A stretch of 40,134 nt of DNA from a virus. The notes below the pieces were generated by a model. It saw only the letters and a list, made by a program, of their open reading frames with translations. It was not told the DNA's origin and made no database searches. A program made the position numbers and the translations under genes. Each line of letters opens with the position of its first letter. Within the stretch, counting starts at the first letter, position 1. Positions 12,717 to 20,361 of the stretch are shown here, one piece after another. The DNA is taken from the UHGV virus genome UHGV-0210680; one strand, given 5' to 3'.

Positions 12717-15110
12717 ATGGCTAATTACCGTGATTTGTTAGAGCAGGCTGGCGCACGTTACGGTGTGCCAGAAGGGTTGATGACTGCACTGGGTGCCAAG
12801 GAGTCTTCTTACAACCCTGCCGCAGTAAGCTCCGCCGGGGCTGTAGGATTGACTCAGGTCATGCCTGGGACATGGCGTGATATGGGTTATACCGATGAGC
12901 AAATGCAAAACCCCGAATATCAGGCTGACGCTGGCGCGCGCTATCTGGCAAAGATGTACCAGCAGTTTGGTAACTGGCGTGACGCTCTTCAGGCTTATCA
13001 CGACGGTCCCGGCAACGTTATGAAGGCAAAGCGTGGTGAATATACGCCAGGACCTGAAGGCCGCGGTTACGTTGATGATCGCTTTGCTCAATGGGCGGGT
13101 GACCCGGTGACAGACTCAACAATCGAACAGCGCGCCACCTCTGCAAAGGTACATCCTCAGCAAGACCCTAACAACCCGTTTGCACAACTGGAAGCACAGT
13201 CATCCGAACAAGTATCGGCATCAGGCGTGCAGTCAGACCCAAATAATCCATTTGCTCAGATTGAGCAGCAGGCAGCCAGTCAGCAGCCACCTCAACCCGT
13301 AAGTTCTGTCGCACCGAAACCTGTTCAGCAGCAAGGCGGAATAATGTCTGACCTTGGTAATGGACTTGCTGAAACCGGGCGCGGCTTACTACAGGCAGGA
13401 ATCAACGTAGCGAACATACCTGCTGAACTCACTGATGCTGTAACAAGCGCGGCGGCTTGGGCTGGCGGTAAACTCGGCATTGGCGATGGTACATATCAAC
13501 CAGCACCACGAGTAACAACGCAGGGATTAGAGCAGGACTTTGGCCTTCAGCAAGGCGCGCTGACTCCACAAACGACAGAGGGGAGGGTATTTGCTGAAGC
13601 ATTTCCTTACCTCACTCCTGCTGGCGTTGAGAGAGCGGCAACACAGGCACCAACACTTGCTGGTCGAATTGCTCAGGGGGCAACTCGCCTTCTCGCAGAA
13701 AACGCAGTTGGATCACTTGCTGCAAACAGTATGAAAGATGATGCGGAAGCACTCGCTACCGATTTAGGCGTTGGTGTGCTGGCTGGCGGTGCTATTAACG
13801 CTGCCGGACGTGGATTAGGTGCTGCTTATCGTGGCGTTCGTGGTGCTATTGCGCCAGAAGCGCAGCAGGCTATCAGATTTGCAGAGCGTGAAGGAGTTCC
13901 TCTGCACACCACAGATCTGTTACAGCCTACTTCCCGCGTCGGGAAAATGGCGCAGACGACAGCGGAAAATATCCCCCTGGCTGGCACAAGCGGAATGAGA
14001 GCAACGCAACAGGAAGCGAGAAGCCAGTTGGTGCAGAGATTTGCTGATAAATTCGGTGAGTATGATCCAACTGTTGTTATTGACAGCCTTAAAGCGAAAA
14101 CATCAGGAATTCGTCGTGCTGCAGGGAACCGTCTTGAGCAGGTTCAGAATGCTATGGCTGGAGTAAACATTCAGCCTGCGCGAGCAATTCAGCAGATTGA
14201 TACTGAGATATCTAACCTGCAGAAGCTTGGTAAGGTTGCTGATAACGAGACTATTTCAAAACTTCAGTCATATCGTGATGAGCTTGTTCGCAATGCTGGC
14301 CCTGATGGTCCGGTTAATCTGGATTTGAAGCAATTAAGCGATCTGCGCAGCCAGTTCAGAATGGACGTGAAGGGGGAGCGACCAGTGTTACCAAACCGTT
14401 CCGATGCTGCCATTCAGCGCGTTTACAAGGCAATGACTGACGATATCAATGGTGCCATTGGTCAGAATCTTGGCAACGATACTCTCCGTAAATATCAGCA
14501 GGCCAATGCCGTCTACGCTGACGAAGCGGCGAAACTAAAGAATACCAGGCTGAAGAATGTTCTCATGAAAGGCGATCTGACGCCGGAAGTTGTCAACAAC
14601 ATGCTATTCAGCAAGAACAAATCGGAAATTAAGACGCTGTATAACTCAGTTGGTCGTGTTGGCAGGGCGCAAATGCGCAATGGCATCATTGGAAAGGCGA
14701 TGGAGAAATCAGGTGGTTCCCCTGACCAGTTCCTTCGACAGCTTAACATCCTGCAAAACCAGACTGGCATCACATTTAAAGGTCAGGAAGCCGCTTATCT
14801 GAAAGGATTGAAAAACTACCTGCAATCCACGCAGCAGGCTGCAAAAGCGGCAGTAACAACACCAACAGGGCAGCAAACCATCCCGTTCATTATCGGATAT
14901 GGGACAGCAATGAACCCTGCGACAACTGGCGCAGCGGTAAGCTACGGACTTCTTACTCGTGCCTATGAGAGCGAGTCATTCAGAAATGCAATGCTCCGAA
15001 TGGCAAACACCCCACGCGGATCAACAGCCTTTGAGAAAGCAATGCAGCAGGCACAAAAGGCAATTAACGCTCTGACGCAGGGGGCTAAGTCTGATGCGTT
15101 GTCAGAATAG
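12717..15110 (+). CDS. ejection protein gp16-like with N-terminal lytic transglycosylase (SLT) domain
   Basis: 797-aa ORF at the gene-16 position; the N-terminal ~110 aa carry SLT-like motifs (E-S-S-Y.P.A.S..GA.GL.QVMPGTW...Y); the rest is A/Q-rich, typical of ejection proteins. Confidence 0.75.
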   Translation: MANYRDLLEQAGARYGVPEGLMTALGAKESSYNPAAVSSAGAVGLTQVMPGTWRDMGYTDEQMQNPEYQADAGARYLAKMYQQFGNWRDALQAYHDGPGNVMKAKRGEYTPGPEGRGYVDDRFAQWAGDPVTDSTIEQRATSAKVHPQQDPNNPFAQLEAQSSEQVSASGVQSDPNNPFAQIEQQAASQQPPQPVSSVAPKPVQQQGGIMSDLGNGLAETGRGLLQAGINVANIPAELTDAVTSAAAWAGGKLGIGDGTYQPAPRVTTQGLEQDFGLQQGALTPQTTEGRVFAEAFPYLTPAGVERAATQAPTLAGRIAQGATRLLAENAVGSLAANSMKDDAEALATDLGVGVLAGGAINAAGRGLGAAYRGVRGAIAPEAQQAIRFAEREGVPLHTTDLLQPTSRVGKMAQTTAENIPLAGTSGMRATQQEARSQLVQRFADKFGEYDPTVVIDSLKAKTSGIRRAAGNRLEQVQNAMAGVNIQPARAIQQIDTEISNLQKLGKVADNETISKLQSYRDELVRNAGPDGPVNLDLKQLSDLRSQFRMDVKGERPVLPNRSDAAIQRVYKAMTDDINGAIGQNLGNDTLRKYQQANAVYADEAAKLKNTRLKNVLMKGDLTPEVVNNMLFSKNKSEIKTLYNSVGRVGRAQMRNGIIGKAMEKSGGSPDQFLRQLNILQNQTGITFKGQEAAYLKGLKNYLQSTQQAAKAAVTTPTGQQTIPFIIGYGTAMNPATTGAAVSYGLLTRAYESESFRNAMLRMANTPRGSTAFEKAMQQAQKAINALTQGAKSDALSE

Positions 15111-15199: not shown

Positions 15200-15460
15200 T
15201 TATCTGCTGTCTTTTTTATATAGCTCCTTGAGCGTATCAAAGACAATTTTCTTAACCATATCAGATTGTTGTTCTGCCATACGCTCTGCATCGTCAATGT
15301 AAACTGATGCAGAGCTTTGTTTATCCAATGATTCTTCAATCGCTGCAATTATCTCTGAGTTAAGCGACCTGTTATTCATCTTCGCACGCAGCTTAATTTT
15401 CGCGTGAAGTTCATGCGGAAGTCTCAAGTGAAACTGCGCCTCGTCGTATTTGCTGTACAT
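15200..15460 (-). CDS. mnt: Mnt repressor (ribbon-helix-helix)
   Basis: 86 aa from the ATG at 15460 (MYSKYDEAQFHLRLPHELHAKIKLRAKMNNRSLNSE...NDAERMAEQQSDMVKKIVFDTLKELYKK) closely matching P22 Mnt; an alternative ATG lies at 15493. The 252-aa ORF in the track is an antisense extension into the tailspike gene. Confidence 0.85.
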   Translation of the reverse strand: MYSKYDEAQFHLRLPHELHAKIKLRAKMNNRSLNSEIIAAIEESLDKQSSASVYIDDAERMAEQQSDMVKKIVFDTLKELYKKDSR

Positions 15461-15595
15461 CCTTGATGCCTCACCAGTTGGGTGGAATGGCATCGTAAAA
15501 CCTACTGTACAAATCAACAATCGTACCGTTTCGGTATGCAACAAACACCAACCGTAGCCACGCTGCGGCGATTCCTTGTATCTGGAGCAAATTAA

Positions 15596-17734
15596 ATGAC
15601 AGACATTACAGCCAATGTGATCGTATCGATGCCTTCGCAACTTTTCACTATGGCGCGTTCTTTTAAAGCGGTTGCCAATGGCAAAATTTATATCGGTAAA
15701 ATTGACACGGACCCCGTAAATCCAGAAAACCAGATTCAGGTTTATGTGGAGAACGAAGACGGCTCTCACGTTCCTGTTTCGCAACCAATCATCATTAATG
15801 CTGCTGGATATCCGGTATATAACGGACAGATTGCCAAATTCGTAACTGAGCAAGGCCATTCTATGGCTGTTTATGATGCGTATGGTGCACAGCAGTTCAA
15901 ATTCCCAAATGTGCTGAAGTACGACCCTGATCAATTTGAGATTAGGCTTTCTAATCAAGACGGCGCTGGTCTTGTTGGGATTATGCCATATGGCACGGTA
16001 CAGGATGCCATCAAATGGGTTGTCCCCGAGGTATTCCCCGGAAGTAATGCGTCAGAAAAATTACAGGCAGCTGTAAATTATGCGGTTGCAAACAAAACGA
16101 GAGTTGTAGCATCAGGTGTGTACGATGTAACAGCCCCCGTCACCATCCCAGGAGACATCATTATCGATGCTTCTACTGGAGAATTTACCTTCAATGGCAT
16201 TGATTATATTTTCCATCCGCTTGGCGCAAAATCAGTAGAGATTATCGGTGGTAAGTTCACCGCAAATGCATACCACACCCAGCGTCCTCAGGTAATTTTC
16301 AATGATTACCCTGATGGGCTGGCGAATTTACCAACGCGCGTGGTGATAAAAGATATGCAATGCTTTAACTGCGGTGTTGGCTACATCATGGTTAACTGTC
16401 AGGACCCAACCAGCGTACATATTTCAGTTGAAAATAACTATTGTACGACTGATGATAATACAGATTTATATATATCAAATTCAGATATGCATCCAGGAGA
16501 AAGCATATTCCCATATTTAACAATACTTGGTGATACGCTTGATTCTGTAGATTTGGGAACACCAAGAAAATCAATGTTCCATGTAACAGGAAATACATTC
16601 GATGTGTTTATGCAATCAGGTTATAATACAGATATATATAAAATAGGAAGCACAACAGTAGGAGGGGAAACAACAGGAAATAGGTTCATAAATAGGAATG
16701 AAGAATCATCATGTGAAATTGATACGTTCACCGGAGGTCTTGAATGTGTTATTGATAATAACACAATGTGGAATGTTTCTGTAAAAGCCATGACGTTATT
16801 AATAAGTGGCGGTGAACGAGTTGGTCTTGGTGGAAGATCATCTATAAGTAATAACGTTTTTCATTTTGAAAAAAACCCACTTAATGATTTTGGAATATGG
16901 TTAAGAACATCACTGGTAAATGTATGTAACAATGTTATTTATTATGTTGGATCTGATAACCCCTCAGAGCAACGTACATTTAACGGAATTTCAGGGCAAA
17001 AATTAGATAATAATAACAATGGATTTGGTGGTGATTGGTGTGCTGGTAATAACGTATCCAACAACATAATTCAAATTATTACAGGTGAAGTTGACAAATC
17101 TGTTAGAGTGCAATGCATCAATCCTACTGATTTCGCTGGGAGCGTTTTTAATGGAAATTGTCTTTTTGGTGGTAATGGTATGGTGATAGATGCAAGACCT
17201 GAAAGAAATAGAAATGTCTGGAGTGGTAATTATATAAGCTCTGGTCTATTTTCTGCTGAGGATATATGGAGAATGAATTCCGCATTCGTTGGTGGAAGTA
17301 ATTATATTGGAAGTTCTTACGATAACTCTGTTCGTGGCCCATATCTTTTAAGAAAGGAAATACCAGCTCAACAAGATGGGAGTATAATAAGAATTGAATT
17401 GGATTATGCGATAAATAATGGATACGCTTCGGACAGATGTCTTTATCTCTTAATGGTAAAAGTTAATGGTGGGATTAAAAATAACTATCAGACATTTGTT
17501 GTCTCTTCTGGAGCTCACGATGCGCAAGATCTAAAGCCAGCAATAGACGAAAGAATAGACCCAAACACAACTGACAACAATTTAAAACAAATATCATTTA
17601 GAGCTGGTTATACAGGTTCTAGTGGGCTAATTGTTTTGCAGGCAAGGGGTAATTATTATTCATCAGGAAATCCACCGACATCTATAGAATATTCTATTAT
17701 ACCGTTAACAGCAAACTTCCCCATGGCATTTTAA
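15596..17734 (+). CDS. tailspike protein (P22 gp9-like head-binding domain plus divergent receptor-binding domain)
   Basis: The N-terminal ~120 aa (MTDITANV.VS.P...SFKAVANGKIYIG.IDTDPVNP.NQI.VY.ENEDGSHV...NVLKYDPDQ) match the P22 tailspike head-binding domain. The remaining ~590 aa are N/G/S/I-rich and encoded by markedly AT-rich DNA. GGAG RBS upstream. Confidence 0.9.
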   Translation: MTDITANVIVSMPSQLFTMARSFKAVANGKIYIGKIDTDPVNPENQIQVYVENEDGSHVPVSQPIIINAAGYPVYNGQIAKFVTEQGHSMAVYDAYGAQQFKFPNVLKYDPDQFEIRLSNQDGAGLVGIMPYGTVQDAIKWVVPEVFPGSNASEKLQAAVNYAVANKTRVVASGVYDVTAPVTIPGDIIIDASTGEFTFNGIDYIFHPLGAKSVEIIGGKFTANAYHTQRPQVIFNDYPDGLANLPTRVVIKDMQCFNCGVGYIMVNCQDPTSVHISVENNYCTTDDNTDLYISNSDMHPGESIFPYLTILGDTLDSVDLGTPRKSMFHVTGNTFDVFMQSGYNTDIYKIGSTTVGGETTGNRFINRNEESSCEIDTFTGGLECVIDNNTMWNVSVKAMTLLISGGERVGLGGRSSISNNVFHFEKNPLNDFGIWLRTSLVNVCNNVIYYVGSDNPSEQRTFNGISGQKLDNNNNGFGGDWCAGNNVSNNIIQIITGEVDKSVRVQCINPTDFAGSVFNGNCLFGGNGMVIDARPERNRNVWSGNYISSGLFSAEDIWRMNSAFVGGSNYIGSSYDNSVRGPYLLRKEIPAQQDGSIIRIELDYAINNGYASDRCLYLLMVKVNGGIKNNYQTFVVSSGAHDAQDLKPAIDERIDPNTTDNNLKQISFRAGYTGSSGLIVLQARGNYYSSGNPPTSIEYSIIPLTANFPMAF

Positions 17735-17739
17735 TAAAT

Positions 17740-17764
17740 GCCAGCGCATGACAAGTGCGCTGGC
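17740..17764. terminator. bidirectional rho-independent terminator between convergent tailspike and oac genes
   Basis: Perfect 9-bp stem GCCAGCGCA / TGCGCTGGC with a 7-nt loop, flanked by A/T-rich sequence on both sides, between the tailspike stop (17734) and the oac stop (17773). Confidence 0.7.
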
Positions 17765-17772
17765 ATTGCTGG

Positions 17773-18780
17773 TCATATTATCTTATTCAAATACTTTAAT
17801 TTACTAATAATCAAGCTAGCTGCTAAAGAAGATGCAAAAACTACCACTATCATAAAGAGCATGTATACAATAGAGAATGCATTTATTTTTAATAAATGTC
17901 TCAATAAATAAGAGTAAAGCTCAATAAAAATAGGATGTATTAAATACACTCCAAGTGTTAGGCTTGCTAGTTTTTTTGATAATAACGACTCTCCACCATT
18001 GATTGAAGAACATATCGCGAATATTAACACCGATGAAATAAAAACATTTAAGCTTAAATAGTCATAGAAATACACTCGACCAAACTTATAAGCTAAAATA
18101 GCCGTTATTATCAATGAAATTAATGTGAATATAGTACACATGCAAAGTTTTTCTGTTTTCTTTGCCCTAAACACACCACCAATAACGAAGTAGCCTATAT
18201 AATTTAAAAATGTTATCATGAAAAATTGCGGTTTGTTGTTTTCCATGCCAACAACGTTGTTGTATATTAGATTAATCAATGGCAATGCAGAGCATATTAC
18301 AATGAGGATTGTTACTTCATTATCACTTGATTTTGCAATTATTTTTCTTAAAAAAGGCGTTATAATATATAAAAAAGGAATCATATATAAAAACCACATA
18401 TGGTAATATGGTTTACCAGCTAAAAGCTGTTTTATTGATGTTATAACCCCTAGAGTTATATCACCTTTGATGTATGACTTAAATATTGTCCATGCGATAT
18501 ATATCATCGTCCATGCCAATACTGGGATCAATATCCTCGTCATTCTTTTTTTGTAAAAACTAATTGTAGAATCCGTTCCATTTATCAAAAAGTAACCACT
18601 CAACATAACAAAAACAGGAACGCTCCATCTGCTGAATGAATCAAGAATATTTGCAGACCACCAAAGTGTAGATCCATAGAAGCTTGGGTTAGTATCTGCG
18701 AAAGTAACATACCCAGCTGTGACATGTATAACAACAACCATAAAAATGGCAAATACTCTTAAATTATAAGCCCACTGCAT
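17773..18780 (-). CDS. oac: O-antigen O-acetyltransferase (acyltransferase-3 family integral membrane protein)
   Basis: 335-aa, very hydrophobic multi-pass ORF with an N-terminal motif typical of the acyltransferase-3 family (RVFAIFMVVVIHV...W.......FSRWSVP.FVMLSGYFL); very AT-rich; sits between tailspike and int as oac does in Sf6. Confidence 0.8.
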   Translation of the reverse strand: MQWAYNLRVFAIFMVVVIHVTAGYVTFADTNPSFYGSTLWWSANILDSFSRWSVPVFVMLSGYFLINGTDSTISFYKKRMTRILIPVLAWTMIYIAWTIFKSYIKGDITLGVITSIKQLLAGKPYYHMWFLYMIPFLYIITPFLRKIIAKSSDNEVTILIVICSALPLINLIYNNVVGMENNKPQFFMITFLNYIGYFVIGGVFRAKKTEKLCMCTIFTLISLIITAILAYKFGRVYFYDYLSLNVFISSVLIFAICSSINGGESLLSKKLASLTLGVYLIHPIFIELYSYLLRHLLKINAFSIVYMLFMIVVVFASSLAASLIISKLKYLNKII

Positions 18781-18963
18781 TTTTACGCCCTTATATTAAA
18801 ATTATATATGACAATATTAATATTGCTTATTCTAAAATTGGAATAATGAGTGCCATCTCATTTGTTTTTCCGTTTATATTCTAAATCAAACTACAATTAC
18901 AATAAAAATAGTAACACATGTAAATAAAATTTATATCATTTTTCAATGATATATGAGTGATCT

Positions 18964-20112
18964 TTATCTATCAAGCCAGTCCGCCCACCATTGCATCATT
19001 TCTCTGCGTTTATCGAGATACTGAGCATGGTTGTAAATTCCACGCACAGAACCGCCGTTGGCATGTGCCAGTTGCACTTCAATAGCATCAGCAGGCCATT
19101 CGTGCTCGTTCATAATCGTGCTGAATTCATGCCTGAATCCGTGACCGCTTTCCAGACCTTCATAGCCGATTTGTTTGATCACAAGCAGTACCGCGTTCTC
19201 GCAGATTGGCTTCTTCTTATCGTTGCGCCCGGCAAAAACAAACTCTGATACTGGTTTAGTGATGGAGCTTAGCGTAGTGAGAAGTTCAACTACCTGGTCC
19301 GACATCGGAACCACATGAATCTTGCGTCCCTTCATCACACTGGCGTCGATGGTGATAATCCTGTTTTCAAAATCGACGTTCTTCCATTGCATGGAACGAA
19401 GCTCTTTTGTTCTTAGTGCTGTGTAGCGTAAAACTTTGGTCGCAATGAGAGATACGATACTTCCTGAAAATGTTGCAAGTGCTTTGTTGAATGCCGGGAT
19501 CTGGTCGGCAGGTAAAAACGGGAAGTTCTTCTTGCGGTATCCTTTCATGGCGTCTGCAAGGTCAGGTGCCGGGTTATATTTAGCCCTTCCGGTGACAATA
19601 GCGTAACGAAAAACCTCGCCGCATCTTCTGCGGGCTTTGTTGGCTCGCTCCATTGCACCGCGATCTTCAAATCTGCGGATTACTTCCAGCAGTTGCATCG
19701 GCTCAATATCATGAATCTCAAGACCGCCGATGATGGGTAAAATGTCGTCATCAAACATTTTGGCAAGTTCAGTTGCATAGCCTACTGACCAGACTTGCTT
19801 CTTGTGCTCGTACCATTCCTTGTAAATCGCACTAAATGAATTGTTGTTAGACGAAGCCTTTTTCGCCTTTACCGGATCGATGCCAACCGAGATGTCTTTC
19901 CTCGCAGTCCATGCCTTATCCCTTGCTTCCTGCAAAGTCATAAGCGGATATTTTCCGACGGTCAGGATTTTCTCCTTACCGTCAATCTTGTAGCGAAGCT
20001 GCCATACCTTTTTCCCGGATACAGGAACATAAAGGTACAGGCCATTACCATCGAGAAGGCGGTATGGTTTTTCTTTCGGCTTTGCTGCTTCAATCTGCTT
20101 AACGGTGAGCAT
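18964..20112 (-). CDS. int: tyrosine integrase (P4-like family)
   Basis: N-terminus from the ATG at 20112 (MLTVKQIEAAKPKEKPYRLLDGNGLYLYVPVSGKKVWQLRY) matches the P4-type integrase arm-binding domain; the C-terminus has an HGFRH box and a catalytic-Tyr region (GIYNHAQY). The ORF track begins at an upstream GTG (20148). Confidence 0.85.
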   Translation of the reverse strand: MLTVKQIEAAKPKEKPYRLLDGNGLYLYVPVSGKKVWQLRYKIDGKEKILTVGKYPLMTLQEARDKAWTARKDISVGIDPVKAKKASSNNNSFSAIYKEWYEHKKQVWSVGYATELAKMFDDDILPIIGGLEIHDIEPMQLLEVIRRFEDRGAMERANKARRRCGEVFRYAIVTGRAKYNPAPDLADAMKGYRKKNFPFLPADQIPAFNKALATFSGSIVSLIATKVLRYTALRTKELRSMQWKNVDFENRIITIDASVMKGRKIHVVPMSDQVVELLTTLSSITKPVSEFVFAGRNDKKKPICENAVLLVIKQIGYEGLESGHGFRHEFSTIMNEHEWPADAIEVQLAHANGGSVRGIYNHAQYLDKRREMMQWWADWLDR

Positions 20113-20361
20113 GGGTAAAAATCCGGTGGGTAAAATTATTTTATCCACTTTTTACCCGTCATGGAGTGCGGCTGTCAACGATCTGACGCGAACCATGACG
20201 AACCGTGAATATACGGAAGGCTTGATATTCAGGGGATTTTGCGGACTGGTACGGATGGGAGCGAACTGATAAATGGTGTCCCCTGCAGACATCTACTTGA
20301 GGCAGCAGGGGATTGATTAGAATGGTATTTTTTAGATGTGAGAAATATTTTACCCGCTAAT

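Follow-up and report, generated by a model that had tools for sequence, protein, structure and literature searches.

A mosaic tailspike gene and a convergent acyltransferase gene form the likely host-range and lysogenic-conversion region of a P22-like phage associated with O153/O178-family Escherichia coli

The viral genome UHGV-0210680, a stretch of 40,134 bp which was analyzed as a whole and is referred to as the window, represents a complete P22-like genome with a GC content of 0.470, which shares 97% identity with coliphage IME10 in its structural half. Here, we address the cassette in which the virion-structure operon of this genome ends. It consists of the tailspike gene, a GC-rich hairpin, a convergently oriented acyltransferase gene and an AT-rich spacer that leads into the integrase gene int (Table 1). 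The open reading frame (ORF) at 15596..17734 on the plus strand encodes a tailspike of 712 amino acids (aa) and has exactly the coordinates given in an earlier annotation of this DNA, which was made without database searches and is subsequently designated the sequence-only reading. The tailspike ORF closes the operon, and genes of the gp7, gp20 and gp16 types, including a gp16 analogue with a lytic transglycosylase (SLT) domain, are located upstream.

Table 1. Features of the tailspike-acyltransferase cassette and its right flank in the window (nt, nucleotides)
Feature	Position	Strand	Basis
Head-binding (particle-attachment) domain, aa 1–114	15596..15937	+	PF09008; similarity to Sf6 and P22
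Linker and first module junction between adaptor and receptor-binding body, aa ~115–121	15938..15958	+	Head-binding matches end at nt 342; match to swi2 fibre runs from gene nt 364 onward
Segment A, conserved N-terminal cap and first beta-helix rungs, aa 122–279	15959..16432	+	94% nt identity to swi2, 97% to M9/M6/E62; GC 0.455
Segment B, AT-rich central beta-helix rungs, aa 280–428	16433..16877	+	Identity drop exactly at 16433; GC 0.330
Segments C and D, last rungs and C-terminal beta-sandwich, aa 429–712	16878..17734	+	Identity to L005; predicted model; GC 0.354
GC-rich hairpin separating the two convergent genes (tailspike, acyltransferase)	17737..17767		Perfect stem of 13 bp (−23.5 kcal/mol)
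AT3-family membrane acyltransferase, 335 aa, putative O-antigen O-acetyltransferase	17773..18780	−	PF01757, E 3.8e-42; phrog_3333 “O-acetyltransferase”, E 3e-60
AT-rich intergenic spacer, right edge of the variable cassette	18781..18963	−	GC 0.213; holds the best promoter-like site
Tyrosine integrase (IntS/Sf6 type, argW), conserved right flank	18964..20148	−	PF00589, PF22022, PF13356; GC 0.468

The only Pfam match in the tailspike is to PF09008 (Head_binding), which covers aa 1–113 (E 2e-64; 215 bits versus a cutoff of 24). In this range, the tailspike shares 92.0% identity with Sf6 gp14 and 74.3% with its P22 counterpart. The sequence-only reading had stated that the first ~120 codons match the P22 head-binding domain almost residue for residue; this is true for head-binding domains of the Sf6/CUS-3/HK620 type, but not for P22 itself. 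Matches to sequences in the PDB are limited to the N-terminal aa 1–119/142 (Sf6 gp14 and P22 tailspike), and the nucleotide matches to CUS-3, HK620 and Sf6 (88–94%) stop at gene nt 335–342. In the alignment, the shared receptor-binding body begins at the motif GAGLVGIMPYG. Thus, the tailspike is indeed chimeric, as had been proposed, with a conserved head-binding adaptor.

A search with aa 116–712 retrieved a family of 38 clusters from E. coli, Citrobacter and Hafnia with identities of 37–99%, and in PHROGs the same residues match phrog_29018 with 1433 bits. The body of this family is found behind varied N-terminal adaptors: in swi2-like siphoviruses these are PF18668 or other domains, and in P22-like prophages (E. 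coli, Citrobacter, Hafnia) the adaptor is PF09008. Accordingly, the tail fibre of vB_EcoS_swi2 (QNR52424; siphovirus, Swiduovirus) belongs to the same receptor-binding family over its full length (69% aa identity), but it has a different N-terminal adaptor, comes from a virulent siphovirus and lacks an adjacent acyltransferase gene. Its similarity to the window is unevenly distributed, as segments B to D are only 45–78% identical and have a GC content of 0.41 in swi2. The tailspikes of prophages in E. coli strains M9, M6 and E62 (WP_073528019 type, 718 aa) share the head-binding domain and segment A with the window and are likewise followed by a convergent acyltransferase gene, and their hosts encode identical proteins in the O-antigen locus, whereas the distal 60% is only ~55% identical and the prophages occupy a different integration site. 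When aligned, the window tailspike, the swi2 fibre and the M9 tailspike are homologous over the full length, with 95–100% identity at aa ~122–279 and 45–75% beyond. Across most family members, segment A is 87–99% identical at the amino acid level. Nucleotide sequences of window and M9 are 97–100% identical up to gene nt ~837 and differ almost everywhere from nt 871. The synonymous divergence (dS) between the two is 0.018 for aa 116–279, saturated and not computable for aa 280–570, and 1.9 for aa 571–712, while the non-synonymous divergence (dN) over aa 280–712 amounts to 0.28–0.48.

A second boundary within the gene is revealed by a metagenome-derived relative (L005), an independent mosaic whose tailspike (protein P0001) is 91% identical to that of the window in the receptor-binding body (aa 116–712). 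L005 is 96–100% identical to the window up to position 16432, 66–76% identical from 16433 to 16877, and 94–100% identical from 16878 onward (98–100% in most 90-nt bins). This last stretch of high identity runs through the tailspike stop codon, the hairpin and the acyltransferase gene to position 18653, where the L005 contig ends. In comparison to M9, segment B is about 56–70% identical at the nucleotide level, and segments C and D are 44–72% identical at the amino acid level. The sequence type of segment B was encountered solely in the window lineage, and the closest further member of the family reaches 73% aa identity. Since L005 keeps both the 3' end of the tailspike gene (aa 429–712) and the acyltransferase gene nearly identical while its segment B differs, the former two travel as one block. 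Accordingly, two pieces make up the low-GC stretch, namely segment B (16433–16877) and a block comprising the tailspike 3' end and the acyltransferase gene (16878–18963) that moves as a unit. The previous suggestion that the tailspike C-terminus and the adjacent gene, named oac at that time, arrived together holds from 16878 onward, but segment B has a separate history.

The GC profile across this region is far from flat. GC contents are 0.435 for the sequence encoding aa 1–115, 0.444 for aa 116–290 and 0.348 for aa 291–712, in the latter case with a third-position GC content (GC3) of 0.218. The block 16433–18963 as a whole has a GC content of 0.323, as compared to a mean of 0.481 in windows of the same size elsewhere in the genome (standard deviation 0.032, minimum 0.415), corresponding to z = −4.9. 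The acyltransferase gene (0.306) is at least as AT-rich as had been claimed, and the GC content drops further in the spacer before it recovers in int. The sharp decrease in GC content had been placed at about 16350, but it starts at 16433, ~80 bp further to the right, and the AT-rich run that had been cited as an example covers 16433–16476, i.e. it is located exactly at the breakpoint. The identity profile and the GC profile agree on positions 16433 and 16877. The GC boundary at 16433 represents an intragenic recombination junction, which lies 165 codons downstream of the junction between head-binding domain and receptor-binding body.

The convergent gene encodes an acyltransferase that is 99% identical among the window, a prophage of an E. 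coli O178:H19 strain (L001) and L005. Otherwise, the protein is a near-orphan: its only 99% cluster is from E. coli, the next relative has 53% identity, and all others have 41% identity or less. Named relatives at the lowest level include those from various metagenome-assembled bacteria, from Enterovibrio (36–37%) and from a Vibrio phage (39%). The name oac is justified by functional analogy only. Pairwise comparison with Oac of Sf6 yielded 25% identity (E 0.003), Sf6 was absent among the tblastn matches at 1e-5, and orthology was rejected at this level of identity; the two proteins are analogues within the AT3 superfamily. The hairpin separating the acyltransferase gene from the tailspike gene is exceptionally stable (z = −5.0), as none of 200 shuffled sequences was as stable, and it probably provides a bidirectional terminator for both genes. 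The best promoter-like site for the acyltransferase gene (TTGATA-17-TATCAT, minus strand, 18974..18946) resides at the right edge of the cassette. Similarity to the loci of M9 and of L006, a further locus carrying a member of the tailspike family, resumes at 18970–18980 at the 3' end of int: in M9, a 71-nt remnant of int has been retained at this edge, and int of L006 is 96.5% identical from 18980. Hence, the junctions of the cassette are located at aa ~114–121 (adaptor), at 16433 and ~16877 within the tailspike gene, and at the 3' end of int (~18965–18980). Being bounded by conserved segment A on one side and by int on the other, the variable cassette has the arrangement needed for swapping by homologous recombination.

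In every examined P22-like prophage carrying this tailspike family, a convergent acyltransferase gene or a remnant thereof directly follows the tailspike gene, but the type varies. The window lineage has the AT3-only type, whereas proteins of ~650 aa combining AT3 and SGNH domains are found in M9, L006/L007 and Hafnia, and an SGNH-only remnant is present in Citrobacter. The partner of the M9/M6/E62 tailspikes, a 651-aa OafA-like AT3+SGNH protein, is unrelated to the acyltransferase of the window by BLASTP. In Citrobacter freundii AP025035 (L012, 7210–8160), the gene after the tailspike gene encodes a 316-aa SGNH product that is devoid of an AT3 domain and may have been derived from an AT3+SGNH acyltransferase by truncation; this prophage adjoins torS, as does that of E. 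coli M9.

The same gene order and orientation, i.e. tailspike, terminator, convergent acyltransferase and integrase, is known from the gp14-oac-int region of Sf6. Besides the head-binding domain, the integrases are highly similar (99%), a terminator is annotated in the same position, and both acyltransferases are AT3 membrane proteins of ~335 aa. In contrast, the receptor-binding bodies exhibit no detectable sequence similarity past aa ~119, the acyltransferases have only the low identity given above, the GC content of the Sf6 cassette is 0.40–0.48, and the host of Sf6 is S. flexneri Y/X rather than an E. coli of the O153/O178 type.

A close solved or characterized relative of the receptor-binding body could not be found, as the PDB sequence search matched N-terminal domains only. 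HK620 and Det7 tailspikes, which are solved beta-helix O-antigen endoglycosidases, are merely ~10–14% identical and act on other O-antigen substrates. The region aa 116–712 was modelled as a monomer by AlphaFold2 using a 24-sequence alignment, which resulted in a predicted local distance difference test score (pLDDT) of 85.2 and a predicted template modelling score (pTM) of 0.85. The model displays a short helical cap, followed by a long run of short beta-strands, the end of the helix near aa 550 and a C-terminal beta-sandwich (aa ~570–712). Thus, the body is predicted to be a right-handed parallel beta-helix with a C-terminal domain, in agreement with the fold class assumed by the sequence-only reading. 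The same reading had described the distal part as N-, G-, S- and I-rich repeats. Indeed, aa 291–712 are richer than aa 1–290 in N (11.1%), G (10.9%) and S (9.7%), but Tandem Repeats Finder returned no sequence repeats in this part, and repetition is confined to the beta-helix rungs of the predicted structure. In alignment A1, which includes the window sequence, 80 columns are invariant. Most of the acidic and polar residues that are invariant in the family are located in segment B (D286, D336, D346, E374, D376 and a TFTGG motif; residue numbers correspond to A1 numbering plus 115), and these are candidates for the active site.

The O153 and O178 O-antigens are not known to contain uronic acid, which favors a hydrolase over a lyase as the activity of a tailspike directed at them. 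Both O-antigens contain Ribf, and the O178 O-antigen contains one GlcNAc (N-acetylglucosamine) and one GalNAc (N-acetylgalactosamine) (PMC7685785). The relation to these serogroups derives from a survey of 5,426 complete E. coli genomes. The whole tailspike-acyltransferase block is present at 98–99% identity in three of them, one being a serotyped O178:H19 strain, in which the prophage is integrated at argW with the block next to tRNA-Arg. M9, M6 and E62 are three further E. coli genomes with a tailspike of this family, which have only nt 1–870 in common with the window. The O-antigen cluster of the O178:H19 strain contains wzx and wzy genes annotated as “O153/O178 family”. Genes of this wzx/wzy family occur in 16 of the 5,426 genomes, and all six hosts of the tailspike family are among these 16 (hypergeometric P = 2e-16; 5e-11 with the six treated as four lineages). 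A specificity different from that of P22, Sf6 and HK620, as previously proposed, is thus supported by the O-loci of the hosts, and a near-identical tailspike of characterized specificity does not exist among the sequences compared. The O-antigen cluster of the O178:H19 strain (L004:545-7792) has a GC content of 0.281, which is near that of the acyltransferase gene (0.306) and of the AT-rich tailspike part (0.33–0.35); this is a compositional parallel only.

Tailspikes of Lederbergvirus prophages are expected to track the O-serogroup of the host, albeit with the reservation that a modification gene may be located behind the tailspike gene (PMC10408124). The only tailspike found with experimentally shown O153 specificity, TSP3 of the Agtrevirus AV101 (PMC10791037), served as a control; it resembles the window tailspike in its link to a serogroup named O153. 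Kinship was rejected, as homology could not be detected (BLASTP E 0.07) and the relatives of TSP3 reside in a disjoint set of genomes: they are found in P22-like prophages of 12 E. coli genomes (including CP154406, CP154401 and CP030768), none of which is among the 16 genomes with O153/O178-family wzx/wzy. This disjoint distribution fits the published dispute on whether O153 and O178 really share one gene cluster (PMC4732683) and suggests that the name O153 is in use for two different O-antigen loci. A tblastn search of TSP3 against plasmids yielded no match and was uninformative. A difference between O153 and O178 backbones was also considered as the reason for the existence of the two distal tailspike alleles, but was rejected because the O178:H19 and M9 hosts share identical Gnu and O-cluster proteins (same WP accessions).

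Two explanations of the AT-rich stretch compete with recombination inside the tailspike family. The stretch could simply be a by-product of amino acid composition, as rungs of the beta-helix use N, I, S, K and Y codons, and the enrichment of N, G and S in aa 291–712 is in line with this idea. However, the N/G/S/I content is no different in the alleles of M9 and swi2 (N 10–10.5%, G 10–10.3%, S 8.6–9.8%), which have a GC content of 0.41. The difference resides at third codon positions (GC3 of 0.218 in the distal part of the window allele versus 0.353 in the comparison alleles), indicating that the AT bias is mainly synonymous, and the GC step and the identity breakpoint coincide to the base. Composition without a separate origin is therefore a most improbable explanation. 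The sequence-only reading had favored the idea that a single receptor-binding module was recently captured together with oac from a low-GC donor, providing a new specificity unrelated to those of neighboring tailspike types. The contiguous trough from 16433 to 18963 (GC 0.32, z = −4.9; GC3 0.22) would agree with such an event, as would the low GC content of the host O-antigen cluster (0.28) and the lack of close acyltransferase relatives outside this E. coli prophage lineage, the nearest named ones being those from Enterovibrio and the Vibrio phage (36–39%). However, the AT-rich part of the tailspike is no foreign, unrelated module: it is ~55–73% identical at the amino acid level to its own, enterobacterial family over the full length and has retained all family-invariant residues. 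Moreover, the trough comprises the two pieces with different histories described above, and the saturated dS shows that the allele is old, so that the attribute “recent” fits only the junction. No low-GC donor was found, the tailspike family being enterobacterial and the acyltransferase relatives outside its own cluster being at most 53% identical; with a near-orphan acyltransferase, no donor can be named. Altogether, recent capture from such a donor appears unlikely. Sequence comparison rather indicates that homologous recombination between diverged alleles of one tailspike family gave rise to the gene, which consists of at least four pieces. The AT-rich allele diverged long ago, was selectively maintained and has been joined to the near-identical segment A at the recent junction 16433.

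As to function, we consider it likely that the cassette represents the host-range and lysogenic-conversion region of a P22-like (Lederbergvirus-type) temperate phage, which has the Sf6 layout and carries a mosaic tailspike for the O153/O178-family O-antigen. Several observations weigh against this assignment. The host association comprises six complete genomes, of which M6 and M9 are near-identical mouse isolates and probably belong to the same lineage. Window-type and M9-type alleles are quite different and nonetheless occur in hosts with identical O-loci; distal divergence alone therefore does not mean a different serogroup. PHROGs lists phrog_29018 as “function unknown”, the candidate active-site residues were selected by their invariance, and O-acetylation of the host O-antigen, although the most likely role of the acyltransferase, is deduced from its family and context (phrog_3333). 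It could be argued that the link to O153/O178-type hosts stems from common ancestry or common ecology of the lysogens and that the receptor is another surface structure. The small number of genomes with the two near-identical mouse isolates among them would be compatible with this possibility, and receptor-binding protein subtypes spanning several serogroups have been described (PMC10408124). On the other hand, the lysogens were obtained from human, mouse and rat, and their prophages occupy different integration sites (argW versus the tor region). The O178:H19 strain and M9 encode identical O-locus proteins but different proteins in the chromosomal flanks, which speaks against simple clonality, and the wzx/wzy identities of 99.4–100% among the hosts point to several lineages. 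In addition, the virulent siphovirus swi2 and prophages of Hafnia and Citrobacter carry the family, as expected of a mobile receptor module. Shared ancestry is hence a rather improbable reason for the association, and recognition of the O153/O178-family O-antigen remains the preferred explanation. Reports on binding or cleavage of O153/O178 O-antigen by a tailspike of this family were not found in the literature, and titles and abstracts provided no published host serotype for swi2.

These data are compatible with the following mechanism. The tailspike, presumably a homotrimer, docks to the virion through aa 1–114, as shown by homology of this domain. The body (aa 122–712) would bind and most likely hydrolyze an O178-type O-antigen, i.e. 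one specified by an O153/O178-family cluster with gnu, which is consistent with the predicted fold and the association with hosts. Upon expression from the prophage, the acyltransferase would most likely O-acetylate the same O-antigen, turning the lysogen into a poor receptor and blocking superinfection, by analogy with Sf6 and other conversion systems. The cassette itself diversifies by homologous recombination at its conserved flanks and within the beta-helix, as shown by the breakpoints mapped here.

Some relatives of the tailspike (protein P0003 encoded at L006:2625-5465, and protein P0013) carry an additional C-terminal domain of ~230 aa of the SGNH/GDSL esterase type (PF13472, PF00657). 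This domain matches PDB entry 4qnl, a “tail fiber protein” (E 1.7e-5), which we take to be the O-antigen deacetylase gp63.1 of phage G7C. Accordingly, some relatives may remove from the receptor the acetyl groups which neighboring acyltransferases add to it. The acyltransferases paired with the alternative distal alleles also differ, with the AT3-only type in the window and two AT3+SGNH types, 65% identical to each other, elsewhere. It is conceivable, albeit doubtful, that phages competing for one O-antigen (O178-type) carry interchangeable cassettes to first recognize and then modify it, and that the divergent AT-rich distal allele is an adaptation in an arms race within the serogroup. That distal alleles, different acyltransferases and tailspike-borne esterases form matched sets is an equally tentative idea. 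If true, the window allele would use O-antigen acetylated by rivals or ignore the rivals' acetylation pattern, while its own acyltransferase would exclude them.

Modular tailspikes, intragenic mosaicism and conversion genes located behind the tailspike gene are well established, and the current understanding of P22-like tailspikes and conversion genes is not changed by our findings. New are the serogroup assignment for this tailspike family and the precise segment map. A probable receptor, the O178-type O-antigen of the O153/O178 family, is thereby assigned to a family that is unannotated in Pfam and PDB and of “unknown function” in PHROGs. As O178 includes Shiga-toxin-producing strains, the tailspike is a candidate reagent for typing or for use as a depolymerase. 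The locus also provides a base-resolved case of recombination inside a beta-helix, with the 3' end of the tailspike gene travelling together with a lysogenic-conversion gene. For prediction of host range from sequence, this implies that such a mosaic would go unnoticed if genes were compared by their overall identity or clustered at ≥30% over the receptor-binding domain.

A few further observations concern the neighboring genes. The listed integrase ORF begins at a GTG codon located 12 codons upstream of the methionine that aligns with residue 1 of Sf6 Int, and the 99% identity starts from this Met13, which is probably the true start (position 20112). Upstream of the tailspike gene, the gp16-position ejection protein (12717–15110, plus strand, 797 aa) possesses an N-terminal SLT domain (PF01464, E 2.7e-25). 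It resembles the version of the M9 prophage, but not the 665-aa “DNA transfer protein” encoded at the same slot in the O178:H19 prophage, to which similarity begins only at 13329; hence, mosaicism extends to this gene. Immediately upstream of the tailspike gene and on the opposite strand, a small gene for an Arc/Mnt-type repressor (15200–15460, minus strand) is located inside ORF 15200..15958. This long ORF extends over the tailspike start and is probably artificial, resulting from the earliest-start rule. At the same position, M9 carries a gene annotated as “Arc family DNA-binding protein”, and Arc/Mnt Pfam matches are present in L005 and L006.

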